From positions 1 through 64,000 of IMG/VR virus record IMGVR_UViG_3300044518_000037: DNA of 64,000 nucleotides. The stretch is one strand, 5' to 3'. This document shows, piece by piece, positions 1,973 through 64,000 of the stretch. The first letter of the stretch is position 1. Each line of letters opens with the position of its first letter. The translations under genes and the position numbers were made by a program. This DNA comes from a virus. Lineage: Duplodnaviria > Caudoviricetes. Below the pieces are notes generated by a model. That model did not search any database and was not told the origin of the DNA. It saw only the letters and a list, made by a program, of their open reading frames with translations.

Positions 1973-2362
1973 ATGTACCTCATGGTGACCGAGGAGTTCC
2001 GAGGTCGGAAGGACGGCAAGCCTGGCACGGTGACGCTTAGGCGGAGCCGCACCCGCACCAACGACATCGAGCAGATCACAAAGGACCTGGTCCAGATCAT
2101 GCGCGATGCCGACGACCGGTTCTCCGGCATGGAGGACTTCGGGGAAGCGCACGGCTTCTGGCACCCGGATCACAAGTGTCGGCTCCAGATCGGTGAAGAG
2201 CGCTCGGATGAGTGCAAGGAGCTGGAGCTGGAGTCGTGCGCTGAGTGGATTCGAAAGAGGCTCGGCGAACTCCGGTGTGGGGAGACGGAGGACTTCCACC
2301 TCGGCCGCCCTGGAACCGAGACCTCGTATCACGTGACCGTCCAGGAGACCGGCGACCGCTGA
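1973..2362 (+). CDS. Hypothetical protein
   Basis: RBS GGAGG, ATG at 1973. Confidence 0.75.
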   Translation: MYLMVTEEFRGRKDGKPGTVTLRRSRTRTNDIEQITKDLVQIMRDADDRFSGMEDFGEAHGFWHPDHKCRLQIGEERSDECKELELESCAEWIRKRLGELRCGETEDFHLGRPGTETSYHVTVQETGDR

Positions 2363-2450
2363 CGCGTGACGAGAGCGCGCGGGGACTGCACCACAACCCG
2401 CGCGCTGTCACCACCTGCCAGCCACCAATTCAGCTAGGAGGGGATTTCGC

Positions 2451-2843
2451 ATGAAGCGACGCGTGGGGCCGGGCGACAAGGTCTGGATTCGGATGCCGTA
2501 CTCCGAGGTCAACATGCACATGGGTGTCGCGGGGCACCGGCTGGAGGTCGAGGTCAAGGAGGGCGGCGCGCAGCTGTTGAAGGACGGCCGTCAGTTCTCT
2601 TCCCCGATTCTTCACAGCGAGGCGGGGATCTTCCAGGACGAGCGGGGCCTGTACCTGCCCGACCGGAAGCTGACCTGCGACGAGATTTTCGAGCTGAGCG
2701 AGTCGTGCGACGGGCTGTTCGTGATCACCGACCCGGCGCGGCACATGGGCAATACGCCCTCGCTGTCGGAGGTGCAGGAGCACGTGCGCGAGTGCGAGTT
2801 CTGCACGGAGGTCAACAACGACGTTCTGGGCTGGGTGGCCTGA
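2451..2843 (+). CDS. Hypothetical protein, SH3-like N-terminus and C-terminal CxxC
   Basis: RBS AGGAGG; VGPGDKVWIR; CEFC. Confidence 0.75.
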   Translation: MKRRVGPGDKVWIRMPYSEVNMHMGVAGHRLEVEVKEGGAQLLKDGRQFSSPILHSEAGIFQDERGLYLPDRKLTCDEIFELSESCDGLFVITDPARHMGNTPSLSEVQEHVRECEFCTEVNNDVLGWVA

Positions 2844-2845
2844 TC

Positions 2846-3154
2846 ATGGCGAACGGGACGTTCGACAAGCGCGACCCGGCGACGGAAGGGCACTTCATCG
2901 TGACCCCGATCGGCTCGGACGGGAAGGAGTACTGGGAATCCAGGATGTGCCCGGATTGGGTGGTCGAGGGCCGCGAGTACTTCGCGAAGTGGTGCGCGCA
3001 GGAGCAGTTGAAGTGCCGCTATGGCGAGGTGGAGATCATCACCTGCGTGGTGACCGAGTACGCGGACGCCACGTTCGAAAAGATCGTGAATACCGCGCTC
3101 TATACCGCCGCGTACTTCGAACGGTTCCCGATGGCCCGACCGGAGAGGTACTGA
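2846..3154 (+). CDS. Hypothetical protein
   Basis: ATG 2 nt after the upstream stop; coding-like codon bias. Confidence 0.7.
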   Translation: MANGTFDKRDPATEGHFIVTPIGSDGKEYWESRMCPDWVVEGREYFAKWCAQEQLKCRYGEVEIITCVVTEYADATFEKIVNTALYTAAYFERFPMARPERY

Positions 3155-3155
3155 C

Positions 3156-3575
3156 GTGGGCTGGGTCATGCACGAGTCGGGCGTCATGGACGACGACGGC
3201 CAGCACGGGGATGAGCAGCACGGTCCGGCCTGTTCGGTGAGGTACGTCAACCCGGATCTCCCGGGCGCGGTGGTCACGGTCTACGCCTACGCCCACGCGC
3301 CGGAGCGGCAGAACACGGTGCGCGAGGACGGCATGGAGTACGCCGAGTATGGGCCCGACCTGGATTCCCTCGGCGTGGAGTCGCTGATCGAGTACGCGAC
3401 CGGGTGGGACCTGAGCGACCCGGACAGTCAGCCGGAGTGGACGAAGCCGGTCTACGACGGGCTCGACACCTGGCCGCTCAACGGGGACGTGGACAAGGCG
3501 ACGACGGTGGCCCGCGTCTGGATTAGCTCGCTGGACCCGGAGCGGGACCTTCACTGGAACGGAGAGCAGTTCTGA
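3156..3575 (+). CDS. Hypothetical acidic protein
   Basis: Coupled to both neighbours; codon bias. Confidence 0.7.
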   Translation: MGWVMHESGVMDDDGQHGDEQHGPACSVRYVNPDLPGAVVTVYAYAHAPERQNTVREDGMEYAEYGPDLDSLGVESLIEYATGWDLSDPDSQPEWTKPVYDGLDTWPLNGDVDKATTVARVWISSLDPERDLHWNGEQF

Positions 3576-3976
3576 TGAGCAACGAGAAATGTGAGCCGGC
3601 CGAGGCGGACTGGTACGTCGAGCTGATCTACGGCAAGACCTTCTGCCCGGAGACCGAGGCCGGCGGGGTGTGCACCGACCGGTACGACTCGCACGATCGG
3701 CAGTACGGCACCGAGACCAGCTATAACCACGGCTACTTCAAGGGTGACCGGCGGAACGAGGTCGAGGTGGCTGCACTGCTGCCCGAGGGCTGGTACGAGA
3801 TCGAGCGCTCGATCAAGCGGTGCCCGGAGATCGGCGACGAGACCGAGTGCGTGCACTGCGACATGGGGATGGTCTTCACGAACGAGCACCCGCGCTGGCA
3901 GAACGCGGCGAGCGGGGGCGACTGCCCGATCAACGGTCTTGACGGGCACGAGCCGGTGGACGAGTTCAACGCGTAA
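3575..3976 (+). CDS. Hypothetical Cys/His-rich protein
   Basis: TGATG overlap; CxHC and further Cys/His residues. Confidence 0.75.
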   Translation: MSNEKCEPAEADWYVELIYGKTFCPETEAGGVCTDRYDSHDRQYGTETSYNHGYFKGDRRNEVEVAALLPEGWYEIERSIKRCPEIGDETECVHCDMGMVFTNEHPRWQNAASGGDCPINGLDGHEPVDEFNA

Positions 3977-3982
3977 CAGGAA

Positions 3983-4056
3983 GCCCGGCAAATTCGGAAC
4001 GCGACATGGGGACACCCATGCCTGCGGGCGGGTTCGAATCCCGCGCCGGGTGCGCA
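3983..4056 (+). ncRNA. tRNA-like element A (acceptor stem + T arm, no canonical D or anticodon arm)
   Basis: GCCCGGC(3983-89)/GCCGGGT(4045-51) 7-bp stem; T arm GCGGG-TTCGAAT-CCCGC (4028-44); internal hairpin CATGGG-GACA-CCCATG; 3' GCGCA. Confidence 0.7.
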
Positions 4057-4078
4057 GTAGTCGACAGAAAGGGGAAGT

Positions 4079-4540
4079 ATGTTCCCGCTGATTCAGGTAC
4101 GCCGGGTCAACTGGCGTGACTCGCGATACGAGTTCGGGGACGGCACCGCAACAGCGCTCGAAGCTGGTGAACTGGACGCGTACGACGTCGTGCTGGTGGA
4201 CCAGGACGGCGAGGAGCTGGCCAAGTCCGACTGGCCACAGGCCGACCTTCCCGGTCTGGCCAAGACCTACCCCAGCCCGTTCTTGATCCCGCGCAAGGCG
4301 GGACAGCTGCGCGATCTGGCGGCCGACATGTGGACCGGCCAGGCCGCTGAGGTCGGCAGTCGGTTCGTGCCGATCAAGGGCTGCAAGTACGAGGGCCAGG
4401 TCGTCACCGTGCAGGAGATCGAGCACGACGATCGCGGCACCGATGGCTCGTGGATGACGGGCCACGTCCTGGTGTCCCCGGAGAGCGGGAAGGTAGTGCG
4501 ACTCCGGCTCGACCAGCTTCGACCGGCGGATGGCGAGTAG
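4079..4540 (+). CDS. Hypothetical protein
   Basis: RBS AAGGGG; codon bias. Confidence 0.75.
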   Translation: MFPLIQVRRVNWRDSRYEFGDGTATALEAGELDAYDVVLVDQDGEELAKSDWPQADLPGLAKTYPSPFLIPRKAGQLRDLAADMWTGQAAEVGSRFVPIKGCKYEGQVVTVQEIEHDDRGTDGSWMTGHVLVSPESGKVVRLRLDQLRPADGE

Positions 4541-4584
4541 CTAAAGCGGTGCGAAAGCTTGCGCCAGAATTCAAGGAGGGGAAA

Positions 4585-5118
4585 ATGACGGAGATCATTC
4601 CGCCGAGGTGCTCGACGCTCTCGGGCGATCCGTGGGACCCGTGCGAGCGGGCCGCCACGCACATGCTGGTCTACAGCCAGTTGGAGAACGAGAAACGGCA
4701 GGAGTATGCCGAGGCGGTGTGCAAGCCGTGCGGTGAGGGCTACCTGCGCCGGCCGGCGCTCAAGGCGCGGCTCGTTCCGCTCGGACCCGAGACGTACGCG
4801 CAGCGGGAGATCGTCGGAGGCGTTCCGCTGCCGGACGGATCGAAGGTGGTTCTCGGATTCCACGAGGGATTCACTGACCCCTACGTGGTGGCCAGGATCG
4901 GCGGAGCGTTCACTGGCAACGGCAAGTACCTCGGGACGCATGAGCGCGCCCTGGCGCTTCTGGTCGAGGAGCTGGCACAGGTGGTGGGCCTGGTCATCCA
5001 GGCGCCCAAGGTCGCGGAGCCGAAGGGCAAGCCCTTCACCCCGCCGACCTACGCGGAGGTCCAGGAATTCGTGGACCTCGCGACCGGCGGCGGCAACTTC
5101 GTGGGTGAGGAGAACTGA
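4585..5118 (+). CDS. Hypothetical protein with Cys/His zinc-finger-like N-terminus
   Basis: RBS AAGGAGG, ATG at 4585; C..C..H..CKPC. Confidence 0.75.
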   Translation: MTEIIPPRCSTLSGDPWDPCERAATHMLVYSQLENEKRQEYAEAVCKPCGEGYLRRPALKARLVPLGPETYAQREIVGGVPLPDGSKVVLGFHEGFTDPYVVARIGGAFTGNGKYLGTHERALALLVEELAQVVGLVIQAPKVAEPKGKPFTPPTYAEVQEFVDLATGGGNFVGEEN

Positions 5119-5585
5119 TGGCCAGGTACATCGGATACCCGGAGCCGTCGGAGTGGCAGGGCCATCTGCTCAAGCGACTCACCAAACTCGACGCCCGTGA
5201 GGCTGAGTTCAAGTGCCAGCGGTGCGGCATCACCGGGAGCCTGAGTTCACTGCGCGGCCGGATCGTAGTCGACGCCGACTGCGTGGCGAACCCCACCGCG
5301 ATCAAGCTGTGGATCAGCGTGGCCGACTTCCCGCCGCCGGCCAACGACGAGTTCTGCCACACCGGTCCGCAGCGCGAGGAGGCGCGAGCGCGGGTGCTGG
5401 AGGCAGCTGGCCGGATTTGGTACCGGACGCTGGAGAAGCAGCACGCCATGCCGATCGAGGGATGGGTGGCGGTGGACTCGGCGCGGTCGATGGAGGTCGC
5501 GCAGTTCATGAACTTCGAGCAGCGTTACAGGGTGCTGCTGAACGGGGCCAGCGGGAAGGTCGCGATCGAGAAGTTCGACAACTGA
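5118..5585 (+). CDS. Hypothetical protein
   Basis: TGATG overlap; CQRC. Confidence 0.75.
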   Translation: MARYIGYPEPSEWQGHLLKRLTKLDAREAEFKCQRCGITGSLSSLRGRIVVDADCVANPTAIKLWISVADFPPPANDEFCHTGPQREEARARVLEAAGRIWYRTLEKQHAMPIEGWVAVDSARSMEVAQFMNFEQRYRVLLNGASGKVAIEKFDN

Positions 5586-5655
5586 CCGAGGCCGAAAAGG
5601 GCGCCCTGAGTGGGCGCCTTTCGCGTACGTGGGTGCGCCTGACGATGGCCGTCAG
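5582..5655 (+). ncRNA. Type II hammerhead ribozyme (predicted cleavage after C5622)
   Basis: GAA(5594-96)-A; 10-bp stem III; UUC triplet; 6-bp stem I; CUGACGA core (5639-45); one extra U; stem II GGCC/GGCC plus GTCAG/CTGAC. Confidence 0.8.
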
Positions 5656-5675
5656 TGAGTAGGGAGGGACGCAAC

Positions 5676-6284
5676 TTGACCTTGATCAACCCGTTTACCG
5701 AGGAACAATCCAAGCTGTTCATGGCAGTGCTCCTTGTGCTCGACTCCAGCGCGGAGCCGACCCGGCACGACGAGATCGTCAGGCGCACCGGCACCGGGGG
5801 CAAGCAGCGCCGCCTGGCCGTCTACGACGCCATGTGGGGGTGGCAGAAGCGAGGCGTCATCCAGCTCGCCGAACCGATCCCCGGCGATGCGTACGTGAAC
5901 TCGAACCCGCTCTGGCGGATCAGCCCGGTGGGTGAGATGCGCGCCGACGCCTACCGGCGTGAGCTGGCCGAGCGGGTCCGGGAGAACGAGGTGTGGTGGG
6001 ACACCCGGAGCACGTGGTCCCCGACGGAGGAGGTGAACCCCGAGTTCCGGGACAACCCGAAGCAGATCGCCTTCCACTACCACAGCACGGGGTGGTTCTC
6101 GACCTGGACGCCGGTTGAGCGACTGCTCACGGTGTACAGCGCGGGCGGCCAAGTGCTCGACCTCTATGGGTGGTCGCGCAAGGACAACCCGCTCCTCTAC
6201 GACGCGACGCAGGCGGCTGCTCTGTTTGGACCGCTGTCCGCACTCATCTACCAGAACCGGATCTACCCCAGCCAGGAGAACTGA
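5676..6284 (+). CDS. Hypothetical protein with winged-helix-like N-terminus
   Basis: RBS GGGAGG with TTG start; helix pattern DEIVRRTG..AVYDAMWGWQKRGVI. Confidence 0.7.
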   Translation: MTLINPFTEEQSKLFMAVLLVLDSSAEPTRHDEIVRRTGTGGKQRRLAVYDAMWGWQKRGVIQLAEPIPGDAYVNSNPLWRISPVGEMRADAYRRELAERVRENEVWWDTRSTWSPTEEVNPEFRDNPKQIAFHYHSTGWFSTWTPVERLLTVYSAGGQVLDLYGWSRKDNPLLYDATQAAALFGPLSALIYQNRIYPSQEN

Positions 6285-6285
6285 C

Positions 6286-6549
6286 GTGAAGGCGATGAAG
6301 AGTAGCGAGGCGGTTCAGCTCGCCGGCGAGTCCGGATTGATCTGGCTGGGCGGCCGGGCGACGTCCGGCCGGAAGCCGAAGAAGGTTTCGCGGTTGGTCA
6401 AGGTGGAGCTGTTGCCGCGCGGTGCCATCTCGTGGCGCGACGAGAACGGCGTCCTGGTTGACCAGACGCGTACAAGCTCGCCGGTCTTCGTGGAGAAGTA
6501 CGAGCCGGAGATTCCGCAGTCCAACACCAGTGTGAAGGAAGGGAACTGA
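6286..6549 (+). CDS. Hypothetical protein
   Basis: GTG directly after the upstream stop; RBS AGGAG. Confidence 0.65.
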   Translation: MKAMKSSEAVQLAGESGLIWLGGRATSGRKPKKVSRLVKVELLPRGAISWRDENGVLVDQTRTSSPVFVEKYEPEIPQSNTSVKEGN

Positions 6550-6992
6550 TGGACGACATGATGCTCGCGGTCGTGTGCAAGGTGACGTGGCGCCCGAGGC
6601 TTGGCAACGTCGAACTCGGCGCCCCCCAGGTCGAGGAGATGCAGCTCATGGTCGACCGGCACGCTTACGAGAACAACGACGACCCGTACACGAATACGTT
6701 CTACGACCTGTGGGCCGAGGCGACGATGACCATCGCCGGGCGACACGACACGAACCGGAACTTCTTCCAGATCATCCGGATCGAGCCGGTCTGCTCGTGC
6801 CTCGGACCGTGCCGATTCCCGGAGCGGGAGCGGTTCTGGATGAAGGCCGACGGCGTTGCCTTCTGGGAAGCCGGCCTATTCGACCGCGAGGAGGACCCCC
6901 AGGGCTTGCAGCCTCAGGCGTTCGCCTGCGGCACGCCGGGTGACATGGCACTCGTGCTCGCGGCCAAGCGCCGCCGCCACCACCACCAGTAG
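6549..6992 (+). CDS. Hypothetical protein
   Basis: TGATG overlap; RBS AAGGAAGGG. Confidence 0.75.
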   Translation: MDDMMLAVVCKVTWRPRLGNVELGAPQVEEMQLMVDRHAYENNDDPYTNTFYDLWAEATMTIAGRHDTNRNFFQIIRIEPVCSCLGPCRFPERERFWMKADGVAFWEAGLFDREEDPQGLQPQAFACGTPGDMALVLAAKRRRHHHQ

Positions 6993-7004
6993 GGGGGAAG
7001 TGCT

Positions 7005-7700
7005 GTGCAGCGCCGGCAGATCGAGTGGGAGGACGCGTGGATGCACGCGGACCTCCACTACTGGGACGAGACGGACGTTCGCGAGGGCGGCAACACCGCC
7101 GAGGTACGCGACCTCGCGCTGAGGCTCCTCAACCTGTACGAGTCGGAGATCTACGACCAGGACGAGGAGAAGCTCTTCAAGGCGATCGAGTACGCGGGTG
7201 AACGTTGGCCGGAGGGCTTCACCCCCGGGCAACTCGACACCCTGCACAACGTGCCGGTGTCGGACGATCCCGAACTGTGGCTGGGCTCCGAGGCGTGGAC
7301 GGAAGCGTATGAGACCGCCGAAGCCCACGACTGGCGGCCGTTCGAAGCCCTCCTGGACGGGGGATGCCAGGCGGCCATGGTGGCCAACCTGTACACCCAC
7401 TCGAAGATCGACAGGGACGCCGCCAGGCTGGGAGCCGCGCTGTGGGCACTTGGTGAGGTCGAGAACAACTGGACGATCTCCAGGCTGACCAAGGTGGTTG
7501 AGTCCTACCAAGGTCAGACTGGCACCGACGTAGACGAGCTGGTGGACCAGCACATCGAGGAGAACTGGCCGGGCTTCCCCGTCGAATTCGTCAGCAACAA
7601 GGAGCACTTCTTCGACACGCACGTCCTCGGGGAGAACGAGGTGTGCATCGAAGGGCCCGTGCCCGGAGCCTTCTACTACTTCGACAAGAACCGCTGGTAG
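7005..7700 (+). CDS. Highly acidic protein, possible ArdA-like DNA-mimic antirestriction protein
   Basis: Very D/E-rich; C-terminal ESYQG..DELVD..E..P..F..FF..YYF pattern resembles the ArdA C-terminal domain. Confidence 0.45.
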   Translation: MQRRQIEWEDAWMHADLHYWDETDVREGGNTAEVRDLALRLLNLYESEIYDQDEEKLFKAIEYAGERWPEGFTPGQLDTLHNVPVSDDPELWLGSEAWTEAYETAEAHDWRPFEALLDGGCQAAMVANLYTHSKIDRDAARLGAALWALGEVENNWTISRLTKVVESYQGQTGTDVDELVDQHIEENWPGFPVEFVSNKEHFFDTHVLGENEVCIEGPVPGAFYYFDKNRW

Positions 7701-7708
7701 GAGGGGCA

Positions 7709-7756
7709 GCCCCGTCAGGCGGAGGCAGCCGGTTCGAATCCGGCGCGGGGCGCGCA
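7709..7756 (+). ncRNA. tRNA-like element B (minimal acceptor + T-arm minihelix)
   Basis: GCCCCGT(7709-15)/GCGGGGC(7745-51); 12-nt linker; GCCGG-TTCGAAT-CCGGC (7728-44); 3' GCGCA. Confidence 0.7.
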
Positions 7757-7774
7757 GGGACTGCACCACAACAC

Positions 7775-7806
7775 GGCTCGCCCAAATCCGGGCGGGCCTT
7801 TCGTAT
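7775..7806 (+). terminator. GC hairpin with TTTCGT tail
   Basis: GGCTCGCCC-AAATCC-GGGCGGGCC-TTTCGT. Confidence 0.55.
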
Positions 7807-7820
7807 TTCAGGAGGGGAAC

Positions 7821-8564
7821 GTGGATTCCACAACACCGCCGGAGCCCGGACTGATCGAGCCCGAAGCCGTCGACCAGCCGGTGTACCACGCCGAGTTCTT
7901 CGACCCCGAGGGGCTCTCCATCGGCAGCATCAGGACCGAGAACAAGTTGCTGCTGCGCCACCTCGAAGGTACCTGGGTTCCCGCCGACGAGAGCACGATC
8001 TCCAGGCAGATCACCTCGTCGAACACGGACCACAAGCACCAGCTAGGGTTCGAGCACTTCACCCTGGTCTCGAAGCCGGACCGGCGCTCCCGGCGTGTCG
8101 GCTTCGTAGAGCACAACACCTCTGGCGGCGACCGCACGATCGGCACCGTCTTCTACGACACCGTCGACCAGAAGTACTGGGGCACCGTGTTCGAGACGGA
8201 GGGAACGCCGCCGAGGGAAAACCCGCAGCAGGTGCTGGCGGACATCGTGCGCCTGTACCTGCTCGGCCCGCTGGGTGAGAGTCACCCGACGGTCACAGCT
8301 GCCTACGGAGTGGCCCGATCGCGGCTGCACGACCGGGACAGCGCCATCGACCGCGTACCCGAGGGCAAGAACCCGAACCAGCAGAAGCGAGTGATCAAGA
8401 CCGAGGCCGCGTACGAAACGGCGCTGAGCATGCTCGCCTCGGTACTCGCCGCTGCCGGGTACGACGTGCTCGGCTATGGCGACATGCCCAGCCCGGAGCG
8501 CGCGGAGGAGCACCTGAGGCGCTGGATCGAGGCCCTGGAGCAGAAGGCGCCCCGCCGGGGCTGA
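7821..8564 (+). CDS. Hypothetical protein
   Basis: RBS AGGAGG, GTG start. Confidence 0.75.
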   Translation: MDSTTPPEPGLIEPEAVDQPVYHAEFFDPEGLSIGSIRTENKLLLRHLEGTWVPADESTISRQITSSNTDHKHQLGFEHFTLVSKPDRRSRRVGFVEHNTSGGDRTIGTVFYDTVDQKYWGTVFETEGTPPRENPQQVLADIVRLYLLGPLGESHPTVTAAYGVARSRLHDRDSAIDRVPEGKNPNQQKRVIKTEAAYETALSMLASVLAAAGYDVLGYGDMPSPERAEEHLRRWIEALEQKAPRRG

Positions 8565-8686
8565 TCAAAAAATGTCCGGGCGGGGCACCCGGACGGTCGG
8601 CTGTGGGGCGAATTTCTGGGTGGTTCACTGAGCGGGCGCCCTCCACTTCGGGGCGCCCGCTCCTGTCCTATGGGAGGATCCGCGTC

Positions 8687-8971
8687 TTGGCAACGAGGAC
8701 AAGTAGCCCGCTGAAGCTCAACCAGCTGCGGGTGGGGAGTCGAGTTCAGTTCGTCGACTCCATGGAAGAGGGCGGAATGCGCCCGCTGCCGACGCCGACA
8801 ATCCGGCGGGGGATCGTGGATGCGATCACCGGCGGGATGGTCTATGTCCAGGTAAAAGCAAGCGGCCCTGCGCGGAGCAATTTGACTGGTGGATTCTTGC
8901 ACGGGTTCACCGACGTACAGGTCAACGAAGGAATTCTTCACCGCGTCCCGGGTCGCCGGAACCGAATTTGA
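8687..8971 (+). CDS. Hypothetical SH3-like protein
   Basis: RBS GGGAGG with TTG; LRVGSRVQF..GIVDAI..VYV. Confidence 0.6.
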   Translation: MATRTSSPLKLNQLRVGSRVQFVDSMEEGGMRPLPTPTIRRGIVDAITGGMVYVQVKASGPARSNLTGGFLHGFTDVQVNEGILHRVPGRRNRI

Positions 8972-8979
8972 GGAGAGAC

Positions 8980-9459
8980 ATGACTGAGAACGCACCCAAG
9001 ACCGTCCTGCAACAGGTGAAGGACGCCATCGCCGAGCGTGACGCCGGACATGCGCTGTGCGAGGACGAGGACGGCTACGTGATCCCCTCCGAGCAGGACG
9101 AGTTCGACAAGGTCACTGCGGAATTTGAGTCCGAGATCAGCCAACTCATCGACGGCCTGGTGGACGAGATCGAGAACCCGCGTGTCTTCACGGTGATCGT
9201 AAAAGCCGATGCGGACGACACCCCGAACCACCTGTTCTGCGTCACTGTGGCCGCCAACACCACCGACAAGGCGCAGGAGGCCGCGATTGACAGCGCCAGC
9301 AAGTCCTTCATGGAGCGCCAGGGGTGGGACGAGGAGAAGATCACGGCGATGGAGTGGGGCGCCAACCTGCGGTTCACCGCCGAGGGCATCTTCGTGGGTC
9401 ACCCGCTGCGCTCGCCTGAGACCACCACCGAAATCGATCTGACCGATGAGGAGAACTGA
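8980..9459 (+). CDS. Hypothetical acidic protein
   Basis: RBS AGGAG, ATG at 8980. Confidence 0.75.
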   Translation: MTENAPKTVLQQVKDAIAERDAGHALCEDEDGYVIPSEQDEFDKVTAEFESEISQLIDGLVDEIENPRVFTVIVKADADDTPNHLFCVTVAANTTDKAQEAAIDSASKSFMERQGWDEEKITAMEWGANLRFTAEGIFVGHPLRSPETTTEIDLTDEEN

Positions 9460-9461
9460 CC

Positions 9462-9725
9462 ATGACACAGCTGAAGTGCAAACAACCCGACTGTCCTGGT
9501 GGAATCGAGCTGACGACAACCTCACGCTGGAAGATCACCGACCAGCTGTTCCCGGAGATCTACTCCGTCGCCAACGCTGAGGACTCGGAGGACGTCGACA
9601 TCCGCTGTACCAAGTGCGGCAAGAGCGTCCCTGAGAGCACCCGCAAACAGATCGCCCAACTCCTTCACGTCCAGGCCCACTACTACATGGAACGACAGGT
9701 TGAGAACGAGGACGGAGACGCATGA
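9462..9725 (+). CDS. Small zinc-ribbon protein
   Basis: CKQPDC and CTKC pairs. Confidence 0.7.
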   Translation: MTQLKCKQPDCPGGIELTTTSRWKITDQLFPEIYSVANAEDSEDVDIRCTKCGKSVPESTRKQIAQLLHVQAHYYMERQVENEDGDA

Positions 9726-10318
9726 TGCGCAGCGACAAGGCGCTGGCGGCAAGGATCGAGGACTGGAAGACGATAGGCACGCGGCCGATCAAGACGCGGG
9801 GCGTTCACCCGACCAAGACCGGAAAGTGGATCGCGACCTATGACGAAGTGGGCGGGCGGGTGGTGGGGCTCGTTGTTGAGTCCCGTACTCCGCAGGCGCC
9901 CACCGGGGTCGCGATGCTGGTCATAGCGAAGGACGGGAAGGTCGCCAAGCGTCAGATCTCGCGCTACGAGGCGGACGACACCTTCTACACCGCGAAGGCC
10001 ACGGAGTTGGAGGCCGGCCACCGCAAGGCCATTCGGTCGCTGGCTGCCGGCCTCGAATCGCAGCCCACCGAACCGGGCAACGCGCCCATGCGTAAGGGGA
10101 ACTACGACTACTTCAAGTCGCCGACCCCGGACGACCTGAAGGCGTGGATCGGCACCGAAGTCACCGCCTGGTGCCTGACGGACGGGACACCGGGACTGCT
10201 GACCAAGGTCACCGCTACCCACGCCGTGATCTGGCAGCCATATTGGAAGGCCAACCGGGAGATCACACTCGAAGGCACGACCTACCAGCGCGCCGTCCAG
10301 GGGCAGGTCGAGCTCTGA
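9722..10318 (+). CDS. Hypothetical protein
   Basis: ATGA overlap; codon bias. Confidence 0.75.
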   Translation: MMRSDKALAARIEDWKTIGTRPIKTRGVHPTKTGKWIATYDEVGGRVVGLVVESRTPQAPTGVAMLVIAKDGKVAKRQISRYEADDTFYTAKATELEAGHRKAIRSLAAGLESQPTEPGNAPMRKGNYDYFKSPTPDDLKAWIGTEVTAWCLTDGTPGLLTKVTATHAVIWQPYWKANREITLEGTTYQRAVQGQVEL

Positions 10319-26797: not shown

Positions 26798-28279
26798 TCA
26801 CTCCACCACCTCCGCGTCCACCACTCCGAGCTGGCCGAGGGCTTCCTCTGCTGACACTGTCCCCGCCGGGCTCAAGGCGGGGACCCCCCCGGCCTTCTCT
26901 CCGAAGAGTCGACTGAGGAGCCCGACCTGGGCCTCGCCCTTCTGTTGGACCCGCATCGTCAGGCTGAAACCGGCTTCTTCGATCTCAGATTTCAGCTTTA
27001 CGTATTTCGCCAGCCGGTCCATTTCCTGGCTCAAGTTCGGGTCGGCGTAGCCGCCCTCAACCTCCTCTGACATGCGCATACTGAAGACTCTTGCTGCCTG
27101 CATGGTGATGAGCGAGTCCAGGAGCGCGACATATTGTTCCTTGGTCCTGACCTTGATCGGGATCTCGTAGGCGCAGGATTCCCCGGGCCGGTACTCGGGG
27201 CATTTGCGTGCGAGGAAGCAGGCGTCACACGTCCGGATGTTGAGGTCGACCGCCGTGGCGCGGTACTCCGTCCGGCTCTTCCGTTCACCGTCATCGGGGT
27301 CTGTGTACCGATGCGTGAACGCTTCCATTTCGAGTCCGGGAAGCACTCGCTTGGCCCGGCCAACGGGGGGTGAAGTTACCCCCTCGTTCCCCGTTTCTGA
27401 GGTTGTCACCTCAACTCCCCTCCCAGTACTTTCCGCACTTCCCGATTTGCTCTCATCCGGGCTCGCAGCTACTCCCTCGCCATGGCGCTGCGAAATGAAC
27501 GCGATCTGCTGCTGCCACGACCACAGGCTGAGTCGAAGATTCTCGGTCGGGTCGTCCTGCTCGATCAGCGCCGGATCCAGGCCAATTCTCTCGAAAAGGG
27601 TCCTGTGCCGTTTTCGCGCCTGGCCCTTGTAGCGGTTCGGATAGCGCTTCAACTCTCGGCCGGCCCACACGAAGGTCTCGCCGTGCTGGGCCGCCGACAA
27701 CCACGTGGTGCTCGTGAGGGAATGCCAGTCGGCCGCGAGCATCAGTGGCGGGCTGCTGAATCCCATGCCGTGAAGTCGCCGGTTTCGGGAGAGTGATCGC
27801 AGGATCGGCACGATGTCCCGGTCCCCGCACGTTCCCTGCCCTACCGCGATGTAGGGGTACTTGTCCGCCATTCTGCGGAGTTCATCGACCCCCCATTCCT
27901 CGTGCCATACGACGATGGATTTCTCGGGGTCCAGCGCGGATCGACGCTCCTCGATCCATTCCCTTCCCATAGCAAGAGCGTCGAACTCGGTATACACCTC
28001 AATGGCGTCAAGGTTCTGAGCGATGAAGGAGTCGTAGCGTTCCGCGATCTCGCTGATCTCGCTCTGCGCAACTTCGACGCCCTCCCGGTTCAACGTGTGG
28101 CACCCAGAGTCGATCAGCACCGCCTGCCCGGCTGAGAAATTCTCGGAAACCAGCCATACATCCGTGCGCTTGGTGCGCCGGCGGAGTCCCATGTACGAGA
28201 GGGCGACGTGCGGTATTTCGAGCCGTCCAAGGAGTTGGCGGTGACTGGGGATTTCAGCGCCGCCGTAGAACATCTTCAT
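26798..28279 (-). CDS. TGT/DpdA-like TIM-barrel protein fused to a Cys-cluster/helical C-terminal domain
   Basis: VALSY, LIDSG, YTEFD, VVWH, YIAVG, LHGMG, SLTSTTW motif order; C-terminal CDAC..C..C. Confidence 0.55.
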   Translation of the reverse strand: MKMFYGGAEIPSHRQLLGRLEIPHVALSYMGLRRRTKRTDVWLVSENFSAGQAVLIDSGCHTLNREGVEVAQSEISEIAERYDSFIAQNLDAIEVYTEFDALAMGREWIEERRSALDPEKSIVVWHEEWGVDELRRMADKYPYIAVGQGTCGDRDIVPILRSLSRNRRLHGMGFSSPPLMLAADWHSLTSTTWLSAAQHGETFVWAGRELKRYPNRYKGQARKRHRTLFERIGLDPALIEQDDPTENLRLSLWSWQQQIAFISQRHGEGVAASPDESKSGSAESTGRGVEVTTSETGNEGVTSPPVGRAKRVLPGLEMEAFTHRYTDPDDGERKSRTEYRATAVDLNIRTCDACFLARKCPEYRPGESCAYEIPIKVRTKEQYVALLDSLITMQAARVFSMRMSEEVEGGYADPNLSQEMDRLAKYVKLKSEIEEAGFSLTMRVQQKGEAQVGLLSRLFGEKAGGVPALSPAGTVSAEEALGQLGVVDAEVVE

Positions 28280-63194: not shown

Positions 63195-64000
63195 TACCAG
63201 CCCCCCATCAGTGTCTTGATACGGTCGTCCGCCGCGATGAAGTCAACGAAGCTCTTCGCTGCCGACTGGGCTCCCTCCGCAGAAGCAGTCGGCATTTGCA
63301 CAGTAATACTCCCGGTGCTGAAGTTGATATTCACTCCGCCGCCAGTGGTCCGGACGCCGAGCGTCTGGTTCATCAGAGCCTGGCGCACGGCGGTGGCCGC
63401 CTGCTGAGGCAGGACCATCTCGCCAGGGTGCAACTGCGCGCTCTGGGTAGTCGGCACGTTCCACGCCCCGGCGGAGTAGCCCTGGGACGGCAGGTCGGGG
63501 TTGGCCTGTTGCACATTCTGGATGCCGTGGTACCGGCCCTTGATGTAGTTGATCGTGGCAGCGGCGTTCGCCTCAGGATTGAAAATGTCATCCGGAAGTG
63601 ACTTCACCCGGTTGGCCTCGAATGTTGCACCTATTACCTGCCACGGCCCGCGTGACGGGTCCCCGGCCTTAGCATTCGAGTCCCAATCATTTTCCGCGTG
63701 TATGTCGTAGTCGGATTCCCGGTAGGCGATCGTCGTCAGCCCGCGTGCCCAGGCCGCGCCTGAGACGTCCGTGACCGCCATCGCCCCGGAAATCGCATCC
63801 CGGATCTCCTTCGGCGGGGCGGGGATGACGCCCTGCTTGCCCTTGATCTCACCCCAGTTGTAATCACCCACATCCGCCCCGGCCGGGCTAGCGGAGTTCT
63901 TAGCCGAGGAATTCTGCGACGGCGGGGAATCCCCCGCGCTCCCGGCCCATGCCCCGCCGCCTCCGCCAGCCAGGGCGGAGGCCAGGGCCTCGACCTCGGC
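63194..64000 (-). CDS. Tape measure protein C-terminus with SLT transglycosylase domain (partial)
   Basis: Frame stays open to the window end; IAYRES..NDWDSNA..GDPSRGPWQ..NPEANAAATINYI..Y; LHPGEMVLP. Confidence 0.85.
   Translation of the reverse strand, partial: AEVEALASALAGGGGGAWAGSAGDSPPSQNSSAKNSASPAGADVGDYNWGEIKGKQGVIPAPPKEIRDAISGAMAVTDVSGAAWARGLTTIAYRESDYDIHAENDWDSNAKAGDPSRGPWQVIGATFEANRVKSLPDDIFNPEANAAATINYIKGRYHGIQNVQQANPDLPSQGYSAGAWNVPTTQSAQLHPGEMVLPQQAATAVRQALMNQTLGVRTTGGGVNINFSTGSITVQMPTASAEGAQSAAKSFVDFIAADDRIKTLMGGW

Follow-up and report, generated by a model that had tools for sequence, protein, structure and literature searches.

A probable type II hammerhead ribozyme between two genes of an uncultured actinobacterial phage, and the short-stem-I sub-group to which it belongs

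A sequence-only reading of a short intergenic gap in a phage genome had proposed a type II hammerhead ribozyme at 5582-5655, hidden in what looks like a terminator. The question raised by this locus is whether a self-cleaving RNA stands there and, if so, what it may do for the genes on either side. The analysed window covers the first 64 kb of an IMG/VR record of 75.8 kb that is ~77% complete and has a G+C content of 65%; a JGI metagenome contig (102.9 kb) carries the same sequence and is identical across the region of interest. Proteins encoded by the record include a family A DNA polymerase, helicases, a DpdA-like transglycosylase, and baseplate proteins. The host of the element is an uncultured actinobacterial phage, in which the element lies within a co-directional early gene run. 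The closest cultured relatives are Streptomyces phages of 113-116 kb, with a DNA polymerase identity of ~47%; no similarity of the record to cultured phages was found at the DNA level, and no relatives of the DNA polymerase were found among viral contigs. The Streptomyces phages Alone3, GiJojo, BRock, and pSt2308 had no hammerhead detectable by the Rfam type II model (RF02276) or by pattern, with pattern matches in these four genomes equal in number to those of reversed-pattern controls. Elsewhere in the window, a 493-aa protein encoded at 26798-28279 (-) was found to match PHROG 887 (queuine tRNA-ribosyltransferase, DpdA-like; E = 6e-63), a sequence match which suggests that the phage DNA may carry 7-deazaguanine modifications.

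The genes neighboring 5582-5655 are small and all on the plus strand. Upstream is an ORF of 155 aa (5118-5585, +), whose TGA stop codon at 5583-5585 is located inside the 5′ strand of the outer helix of the ribozyme. Downstream is an ORF at 5676-6284 (+) with a TTG start at 5676 (the JGI call uses the in-frame TTG at 5682), preceded by a ribosome-binding site, GGGAGGG, read from the sequence at 5663-5669 (+). Neither of the two encoded proteins had a Pfam family above cutoff or a PHROG match, viral contigs searched with both proteins yielded no relatives, and a word-based search of 5.8 billion proteins returned self-hits only. When tblastn was instead run against loci retrieved by the RNA pattern described below, homologues of the 5676-6284 product (31% identical) were found 3′ of the hammerhead in two of these loci, L157 and L159; thus, the apparent orphan status of the flanking proteins reflects a sensitivity limit.

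The hammerhead-like layout at 5582-5655 (+) was borne out by direct reading of the sequence, and all core nucleotides claimed for it were located both in the sequence and in a full-length Rfam alignment, including: (i) C3 U4 G5 A6 C7 G8 A9 at 5639-5645; (ii) G12 A13 A14 at 5594-5596; (iii) the A15.1-U16.1 pair at 5597/5621; and (iv) C17 at 5622. Read 5′ to 3′ on the plus strand, the element opens with CUGAC (5582-5586), the 5′ strand of an outer extension of stem II that pairs with the tail at 5651-5655 in the minimum free energy (MFE) fold. This strand is followed by an asymmetric CGA bulge (5587-5589), of which the A immediately before GGCC is conserved, and by the 5′ strand of stem II itself (GGCC, 5590-5593; positions 11.4-11.1), as seen in both the sequence and the MFE fold. 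Beyond G12-A14, the stem III hairpin (5597-5621) has 10 bp including one G-U, a closing pair of A15.1-U16.1 and a UGAGU loop; it leads to C17 (5622), the hammerhead consensus position 17, after which the cut is predicted to fall (5622/5623). The stem I hairpin (5623-5638) has 6 bp, a G1.1-C2.1 closing pair and a GUGG loop, and is joined to the core heptanucleotide, an extra U at 5646 that is placed between A9 and G10.1, the 3′ strand of stem II (GGCC, 5647-5650; positions 10.1-10.4, again by sequence and MFE fold), and the GUCAG tail (5651-5655), which is the complement of both 5582-5586 and core C3-C7.

The proposed three helices, type II topology, and single U after A9 were recovered by folding as well as by descriptor. 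The MFE fold of 5582-5655 (+) was the exact type II three-way junction, at -39.2 kcal/mol, and a descriptor match returned stems I, III, and II of 6, 10, and 4 bp, respectively. The pairs adjacent to the core, which form the acceptance rule of Perreault et al. 2011, were all intact (G5623-C5638, G5647-C5593, and A5597-U5621). The fold had a z-score of -4.35, with none of 200 shuffles equally good, and in fold prediction the opposite strand of 5582-5655 did not form the junction. We regard 5590-5650 (+), with the outer helix at 5582-5655, as very probably a genuine type II hammerhead that is predicted to be self-cleaving.

A search with the Rfam Hammerhead_II model had been suggested as a check on the element, and was found to be misleading when taken alone. 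RF02276 could be aligned to 5582-5655 from end to end with all core bases placed, at a score of 14.5 bits compared with a gathering score of 37, and this alignment was visible only with a 121-nt query. Such a score is at noise level, as the same 14.5 bits were given to a site with a broken core inside a coding region (63359-63425, -), which has GAGA for GAAA and poor helices and serves as a marker of noise. The element was not reported by cmscan of 4500-6800 at E ≤ 10, the RF02276 search of the phage's own record returned the coding-region false positive with 5582-5655 absent, and the whole window had no match to Rfam at the gathering score of any family. The low score is explained by the model, which is tuned to the class that has a pseudoknot joining loop I to the 3′ tail and an extended stem I; a canonical phage match (L056), in which stem I is long and the pseudoknot has 6 bp, scored 66.9 bits.

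Most type II hammerheads are stabilized by a loop I/3′-tail pseudoknot of at least 4 bp. In the element examined here, no complement of at least 4 bp to the GUGG loop was found downstream of stem II, and a loop I-tail pseudoknot was rejected on the further ground that the loops across the family are not consistently complementary. Fast cleavage would therefore need another tertiary contact. Given the helix lengths (a stem I of 6 bp and a stem II of 4 bp before the bulge), loop I could touch the bulge at 5587-5589, which may then be its receptor.

To estimate chance expectation, a descriptor composed of GAA, an A..U-closed hairpin, H, a second hairpin, CUGANGA, 0-1 nt, and stem II was used. On both strands of the 75.8 kb record, the only match was 5590-5650. 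In 200 Mb of null sequence, generated as an order-2 Markov chain with the composition of this record, the lenient form of the descriptor had 10 matches, two of them with a stem II of at least 4 bp, and no match was found when stems I, III, and II were set to at least 5, 4, and 4 bp, respectively. These counts bear on a simpler account of the locus, namely an ordinary intrinsic terminator followed by a second hairpin, with the core bases present by chance. Stem III is indeed a GC-rich hairpin of 10 bp that comes soon after a stop codon and has UUU next to it, and the noise-level Rfam score would be expected of such a site. However, the likeness to a terminator that had been noted did not survive a consensus scan, which made no terminator-like call on the stem III hairpin; only UUU follows the stem, these three bases are paired with AAA in the fold, and the hairpin does not qualify as a Rho-independent terminator. 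Furthermore, a chance expectation of less than one per 200 Mb argues against this account, and it is contradicted by the comparative data presented below, in which homologous loci and a large covarying family alike retain the core. We give the terminator next to no weight.

The extra U after A9 was examined next to known hammerheads and in a wider family. Insertions after A9 had been said to occur in active natural hammerheads, and this agrees with the plus-strand hammerhead of CChMVd, which has an extra A between A9 and G10.1; replacement of this A by U raises the rate 3-4-fold (de la Pena and Flores 2001, cited in PMC3705267). The CChMVd hammerhead shares the position of the insertion and differs in being a type III viroid ribozyme of rolling-circle replication, with A as the natural insertion and unrelated stems. 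A family pattern taken from 5582-5655 (GCC-GAAA, gap, UC, gap, CUGANGA-U-GGC) was used to scan viral contigs and matched at least 111 loci. Among the matches listed, 97 of 116 unique ones had contiguous stems (stem I of at least 5 bp, stem III of at least 4 bp), and the remainder were mostly bulged hammerheads, with about seven that seem random. Overall, ~94% of the family-pattern matches listed were perfect type II hammerheads with the same extra U, a base that was fixed in the search pattern. The extra U was also present in neighbors found by descriptor alone, with an extra A in its place in one case, and in the canonical Rfam match of 66.9 bits. Because ~94% of the matches fold, the extra U after A9 is considered a common trait of phage type II hammerheads and not a defect. 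Position 17 was C in 143 of the 148 family matches listed. In reading these figures, it should be kept in mind that ~19-25 fixed bases came from 5582-5655, such that agreement of the family at these bases is by construction; the independent evidence consists of the stems, the A before GGCC, the outer helix, the covariation of the tail, and the gene context.

Many contigs of the family carry arrays of hammerheads, arranged as described by Perreault et al. 2011 (PMC3088659). The 112 kb contig L067 (IMGVR_UViG_3300033112_000310) has 12 type II hammerheads between 587 and 8207, within 8.5 kb, spaced 500-1000 nt apart and each carrying the extra U after A9; L047, L085, and L102 have seven each. In contrast to these arrays, the 75.8 kb record (~77% complete) yielded one copy only.

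Within this family, a short-stem-I GGCC sub-group was defined in this analysis, using patterns derived from 5582-5655. Its traits are the A before GGCC, a 4-bp GGCC stem II, the extra U, often a RUCAG tail, and a stem I hairpin of 16-18 nt with 6 bp and a loop that is mostly U-N-N-N-G; 5582-5655 displays all features of the sub-group. Dedicated scans identified 63 viral loci and 11 loci in bacterial genomes, with the latter in Streptomyces, Kitasatospora, Saccharothrix, Burkholderia, Bifidobacterium, Actinomyces, and several MAG lineages. In an alignment of 35 sequences (A2), 98.2% of the cells were paired and 13 pairs were changed on both sides; the observed pairing and covariation were reached by none of 500 shuffles, and slid controls were only 25-47% paired. 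Because the search pattern dictated stem II and most of the tail, these parts say nothing about covariation, and the signal comes from stems I and III, in which all 12 variable pairs change on both sides (6/6 in stem I and 6/7 in stem III). A model (R1) built from the sub-group without 5582-5655 and its near-copies was then applied to the window, and identified 5578-5655 at 49.6 bits (E = 1.8e-11), with the runner-up site at 13.7 bits. Eight sub-group loci were searched with Rfam; none was detected at the gathering score, and at relaxed cutoff the RF02276 scores of members were 14-33 bits. An A directly 5′ of GGCC was present in 59 of 60 tail-bearing members, in part supplied by stop codons. 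About half of the GGCC sub-group has no RUCAG tail, and the tail is therefore viewed as an add-on and not a requirement.

Loss of core nucleotides from homologous loci had been named as an outcome that would speak against the hammerhead, and the reverse was found. Syntenic prophage-like loci were identified in Kitasatospora (L162), Saccharothrix (L157), and Streptomyces (L159), with 95%, 97%, and 83% identity to 5582-5655, respectively, and all three retain every core base. In L159, stems I and III show compensatory changes; L162 and L157 are nearly identical to 5582-5655 and contribute almost no independent substitutions. The sequences 5′ of CUGAC and 3′ of the tail could not be aligned among these loci. 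Homologues of the neighboring genes were identified by tblastn for 4079-4540 (48-52%), 4450-5118 (69%), 5676-6284 (31%), 6549-6992 (40-61%), 7005-7700 (33-70%), and 7821-8564 (44-48%). The exception was the ORF at 5118-5585, which has no homologue in L157, L159, or L162 and is replaced there by unrelated genes; this swapped gene upstream of the ribozyme fits module exchange at conserved RNA elements. The tail GUCAG is immediately followed by UGA (5656-5658), and the same triplet was observed across the actinobacterial clade and in several further members (L157, L159, L162, L193, L069, L153, L168, L184, and L194); it may represent an out-of-frame stop codon or a part of the structure.

Two tRNA-like minihelices were also noted elsewhere in this gene run, occupying further intergenic gaps at 3983-4056 and 7709-7756 (+), each with an acceptor-like stem of 7 bp and a T arm with the loop UUCGAAU. 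Neither was called by ARAGORN or matched an Rfam tRNA at E ≤ 5. At syntenic positions, the minihelices have 92-96% identity in L162 and 89-95% identity in L157, and a copy like element B is present in L159; thus, at 89-96% identity these elements are, like the hammerhead, conserved far better than the surrounding proteins. Between element B and the gene at 7821 is a terminator-like hairpin (7775-7798, +) of 9 bp followed by TTTCGTATTT, the sole terminator-like call on the plus strand within 2000-10000.

Such conservation could also be explained if the element were hammerhead-shaped yet catalytically irrelevant, serving as a boundary at which phage gene modules recombine or as a binding site for a protein or RNase, with the core as a relic. 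This explanation draws on the 95-97% identity of the element to L162 and L157, where the adjoining genes are unrelated or 31% identical, and on the similar behavior of the two tRNA-like elements of the same operon, a combination that fits recent exchange at conserved junctions. Counter to it, 60-116 diverse members keep all catalytic bases although their stems I and III diverge freely by compensatory changes, and the strand and the position of the element relative to genes are fixed. The kept core and compensated stems point to selection on the hammerhead fold and not on a DNA site, and we consider the relic explanation highly improbable.

With a catalytic hammerhead as the preferred reading, its placement between genes was examined. 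The family was found to have a fixed order of stop codon, ribozyme, ~20 nt with a ribosome-binding site, and start codon. An ORF of at least 40 codons terminates shortly before GGCC in 59 of 60 tail-bearing members, at a distance of 2-40 nt that is mostly 2-13 nt, and its stop codon often overlaps the first G of GGCC or provides the conserved A. The start codon in tail-bearing members is located 13-30 nt past the tail (mode 19-23) and is usually accompanied by a Shine-Dalgarno sequence.

This arrangement suggests a course of events for the transcript. After transcription, the RNA would fold locally around the core, with stem III formed first, then stem I and then stem II, and is predicted to cut itself between C5622 and G5623. 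The upstream message would retain its stop codon and end in the 10-bp stem III hairpin with a 2′,3′-cyclic phosphate, while the downstream message would begin with a 5′-OH immediately at the stem I hairpin. Since the stop codon precedes the ribozyme and the start codon follows it, the upstream cistron would be complete after the cut. In the 3′ product, CUGACG and CGUCAG would refold as a second hairpin, which would block re-ligation, free the 5′ fragment, and keep the ribosome-binding site, located ~8 nt past the hairpin, open. In effect, a polycistronic transcript would be converted into single-gene messages that are separately stable and separately translated. The new ends may protect both RNAs and cleavage may uncouple their fate, an idea based on established hammerhead chemistry and on the processing proposed by Perreault et al. 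What we infer is catalysis, the effects on the stability and translation of the RNAs, and the function of the alternative hairpin.

The product hairpin has a counterpart in the covariation of the tail. When N7 was compared with the first base of the tail in the 60 tail-bearing members, 49 were C/G, 11 were U/A, and none were discordant (CG:28 and UA:7 in A2). The members L189 and L195 have their stems in common, yet differ at both N7 and the tail base together (U/A vs C/G). This perfect covariation implies a second hairpin in competition with the active fold. In 5582-5655, the alternative hairpin is formed by 5639-5644 with 5650-5655; its 6 bp include G8 and the last C of GGCC, making it incompatible with the catalytic fold. 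An exact complement of the 5-nt tail was found 3-6 nt before GGCC in 31 of the 60 tail-bearing members, including 5582-5655, and this 5′ strand of the outer helix usually contains a stop codon. Based on predicted energies, which ignore tertiary contacts, the active fold with the outer helix (-39.8 kcal/mol) is followed by the alternative hairpin (-36.7 kcal/mol), and the hammerhead without the outer helix (-35.0 kcal/mol) is less stable than the alternative hairpin. With longer flanks, the MFE structure switched to the alternative hairpin while the centroid retained the hammerhead; the isolated 3′ product was predicted to fold as two adjacent hairpins, stem I and the alternative hairpin; and the fold predicted with 5582-5598 blocked, as by a terminating ribosome, contained the alternative hairpin.

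We favor a role of this hairpin as a product lock and 5′ cap. The main rival is a translation-coupled switch, in which the element is regulated instead of being a constitutive cutter, and the tail pairs with either the stop-codon strand (active) or C3-G8 (inactive). According to this reading, termination at the UGA (5583-5585) would place a ribosome over 5582 to ~5598 and force the inactive hairpin, such that cleavage would depend on translation of the upstream gene. The perfect N7-tail covariation, with L189 and L195 differing at both positions together, is as expected of a switch, as are the stop codon in or beside the 5′ strand in most members, the order of the three energies and the alternative hairpin obtained when 5582-5598 is blocked. 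However, these energies leave out tertiary contacts, refolding after cleavage explains the N7-tail covariation equally well, and a switch could not be general, as about half of the GGCC sub-group is tail-less and, of the members with a tail, half lack the 5′ complement. We consider the regulated switch unlikely. A broader proposal may be advanced tentatively, namely that the element is a two-state device, whose tail toggles between the stop-codon strand (active) and C3-G8 (inactive, and later a 5′ cap), coupling termination to the release and protection of the next message, and which together with the minihelices at 3983-4056 and 7709-7756 may constitute a mixed RNA punctuation that marks the borders of module exchange.

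Bacteria and prophages commonly carry type II hammerheads, which flank single genes there (Perreault et al. 2011, PMC3088659). Compared with these (RF02276, clan CL00010), the element has the same core and permutation, with stems I and III capped and stem II open, the same intergenic and co-directional setting between small phage genes, and the same proposed job of cutting long phage transcripts to gene-length mRNAs. The kind of element and its setting have thus been known since 2011, and this copy is otherwise ordinary. The differences from RF02276 type II hammerheads are: (i) the absence of a loop I/3′-tail pseudoknot from 5582-5655, in a sub-group with a stem I of 16-18 nt and a loop of 4-5 nt; (ii) a fixed 4-bp GGCC stem II with a 5′ bulge, and an outer helix in half of the tail-bearing members; and (iii) a RUCAG tail complementary to core C3-N7 in about half of the sub-group. 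Three points are mildly new: a sub-group that falls below the Rfam threshold, the rigid cassette between cistrons, and the covarying hairpin in competition with the active fold. A functional resemblance may also be drawn to RiboJ, a synthetic ribozyme insulator with a hammerhead and a hairpin before the ribosome-binding site, derived from a type III satellite-RNA hammerhead. On paper, the two are alike in that upstream context would be removed and a 5′ hairpin would steady the context of the ribosome-binding site, with the resemblance limited to function. In Desulfovibrio vulgaris, in vivo cleavage of three type II hammerheads with phage-like genes nearby was detected by cyPhyRNA-seq (PMC8782182), which shows that predicted elements of this kind are active in cells; these are likewise near hypothetical or phage-like genes, in a different phylum.

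Proposals for the job of phage intergenic hammerheads, known since 2011, are conjectural. The large and well-conserved sub-group described here spans phages and prophages of Actinobacteria, Burkholderia, and other bacteria, and it is invisible to Rfam at the gathering score; therefore, annotation of phages and prophages under-counts such ribozymes. With its rigid cassette, its covarying hairpin, and cultivable carriers of a nearly identical element among Kitasatospora, Streptomyces, and Saccharothrix (such as Kitasatospora sp. NPDC052896, Streptomyces sp. CBMA156, and Saccharothrix sp. ST-888), the sub-group provides a good system for the function of bacterial hammerheads in gene expression.
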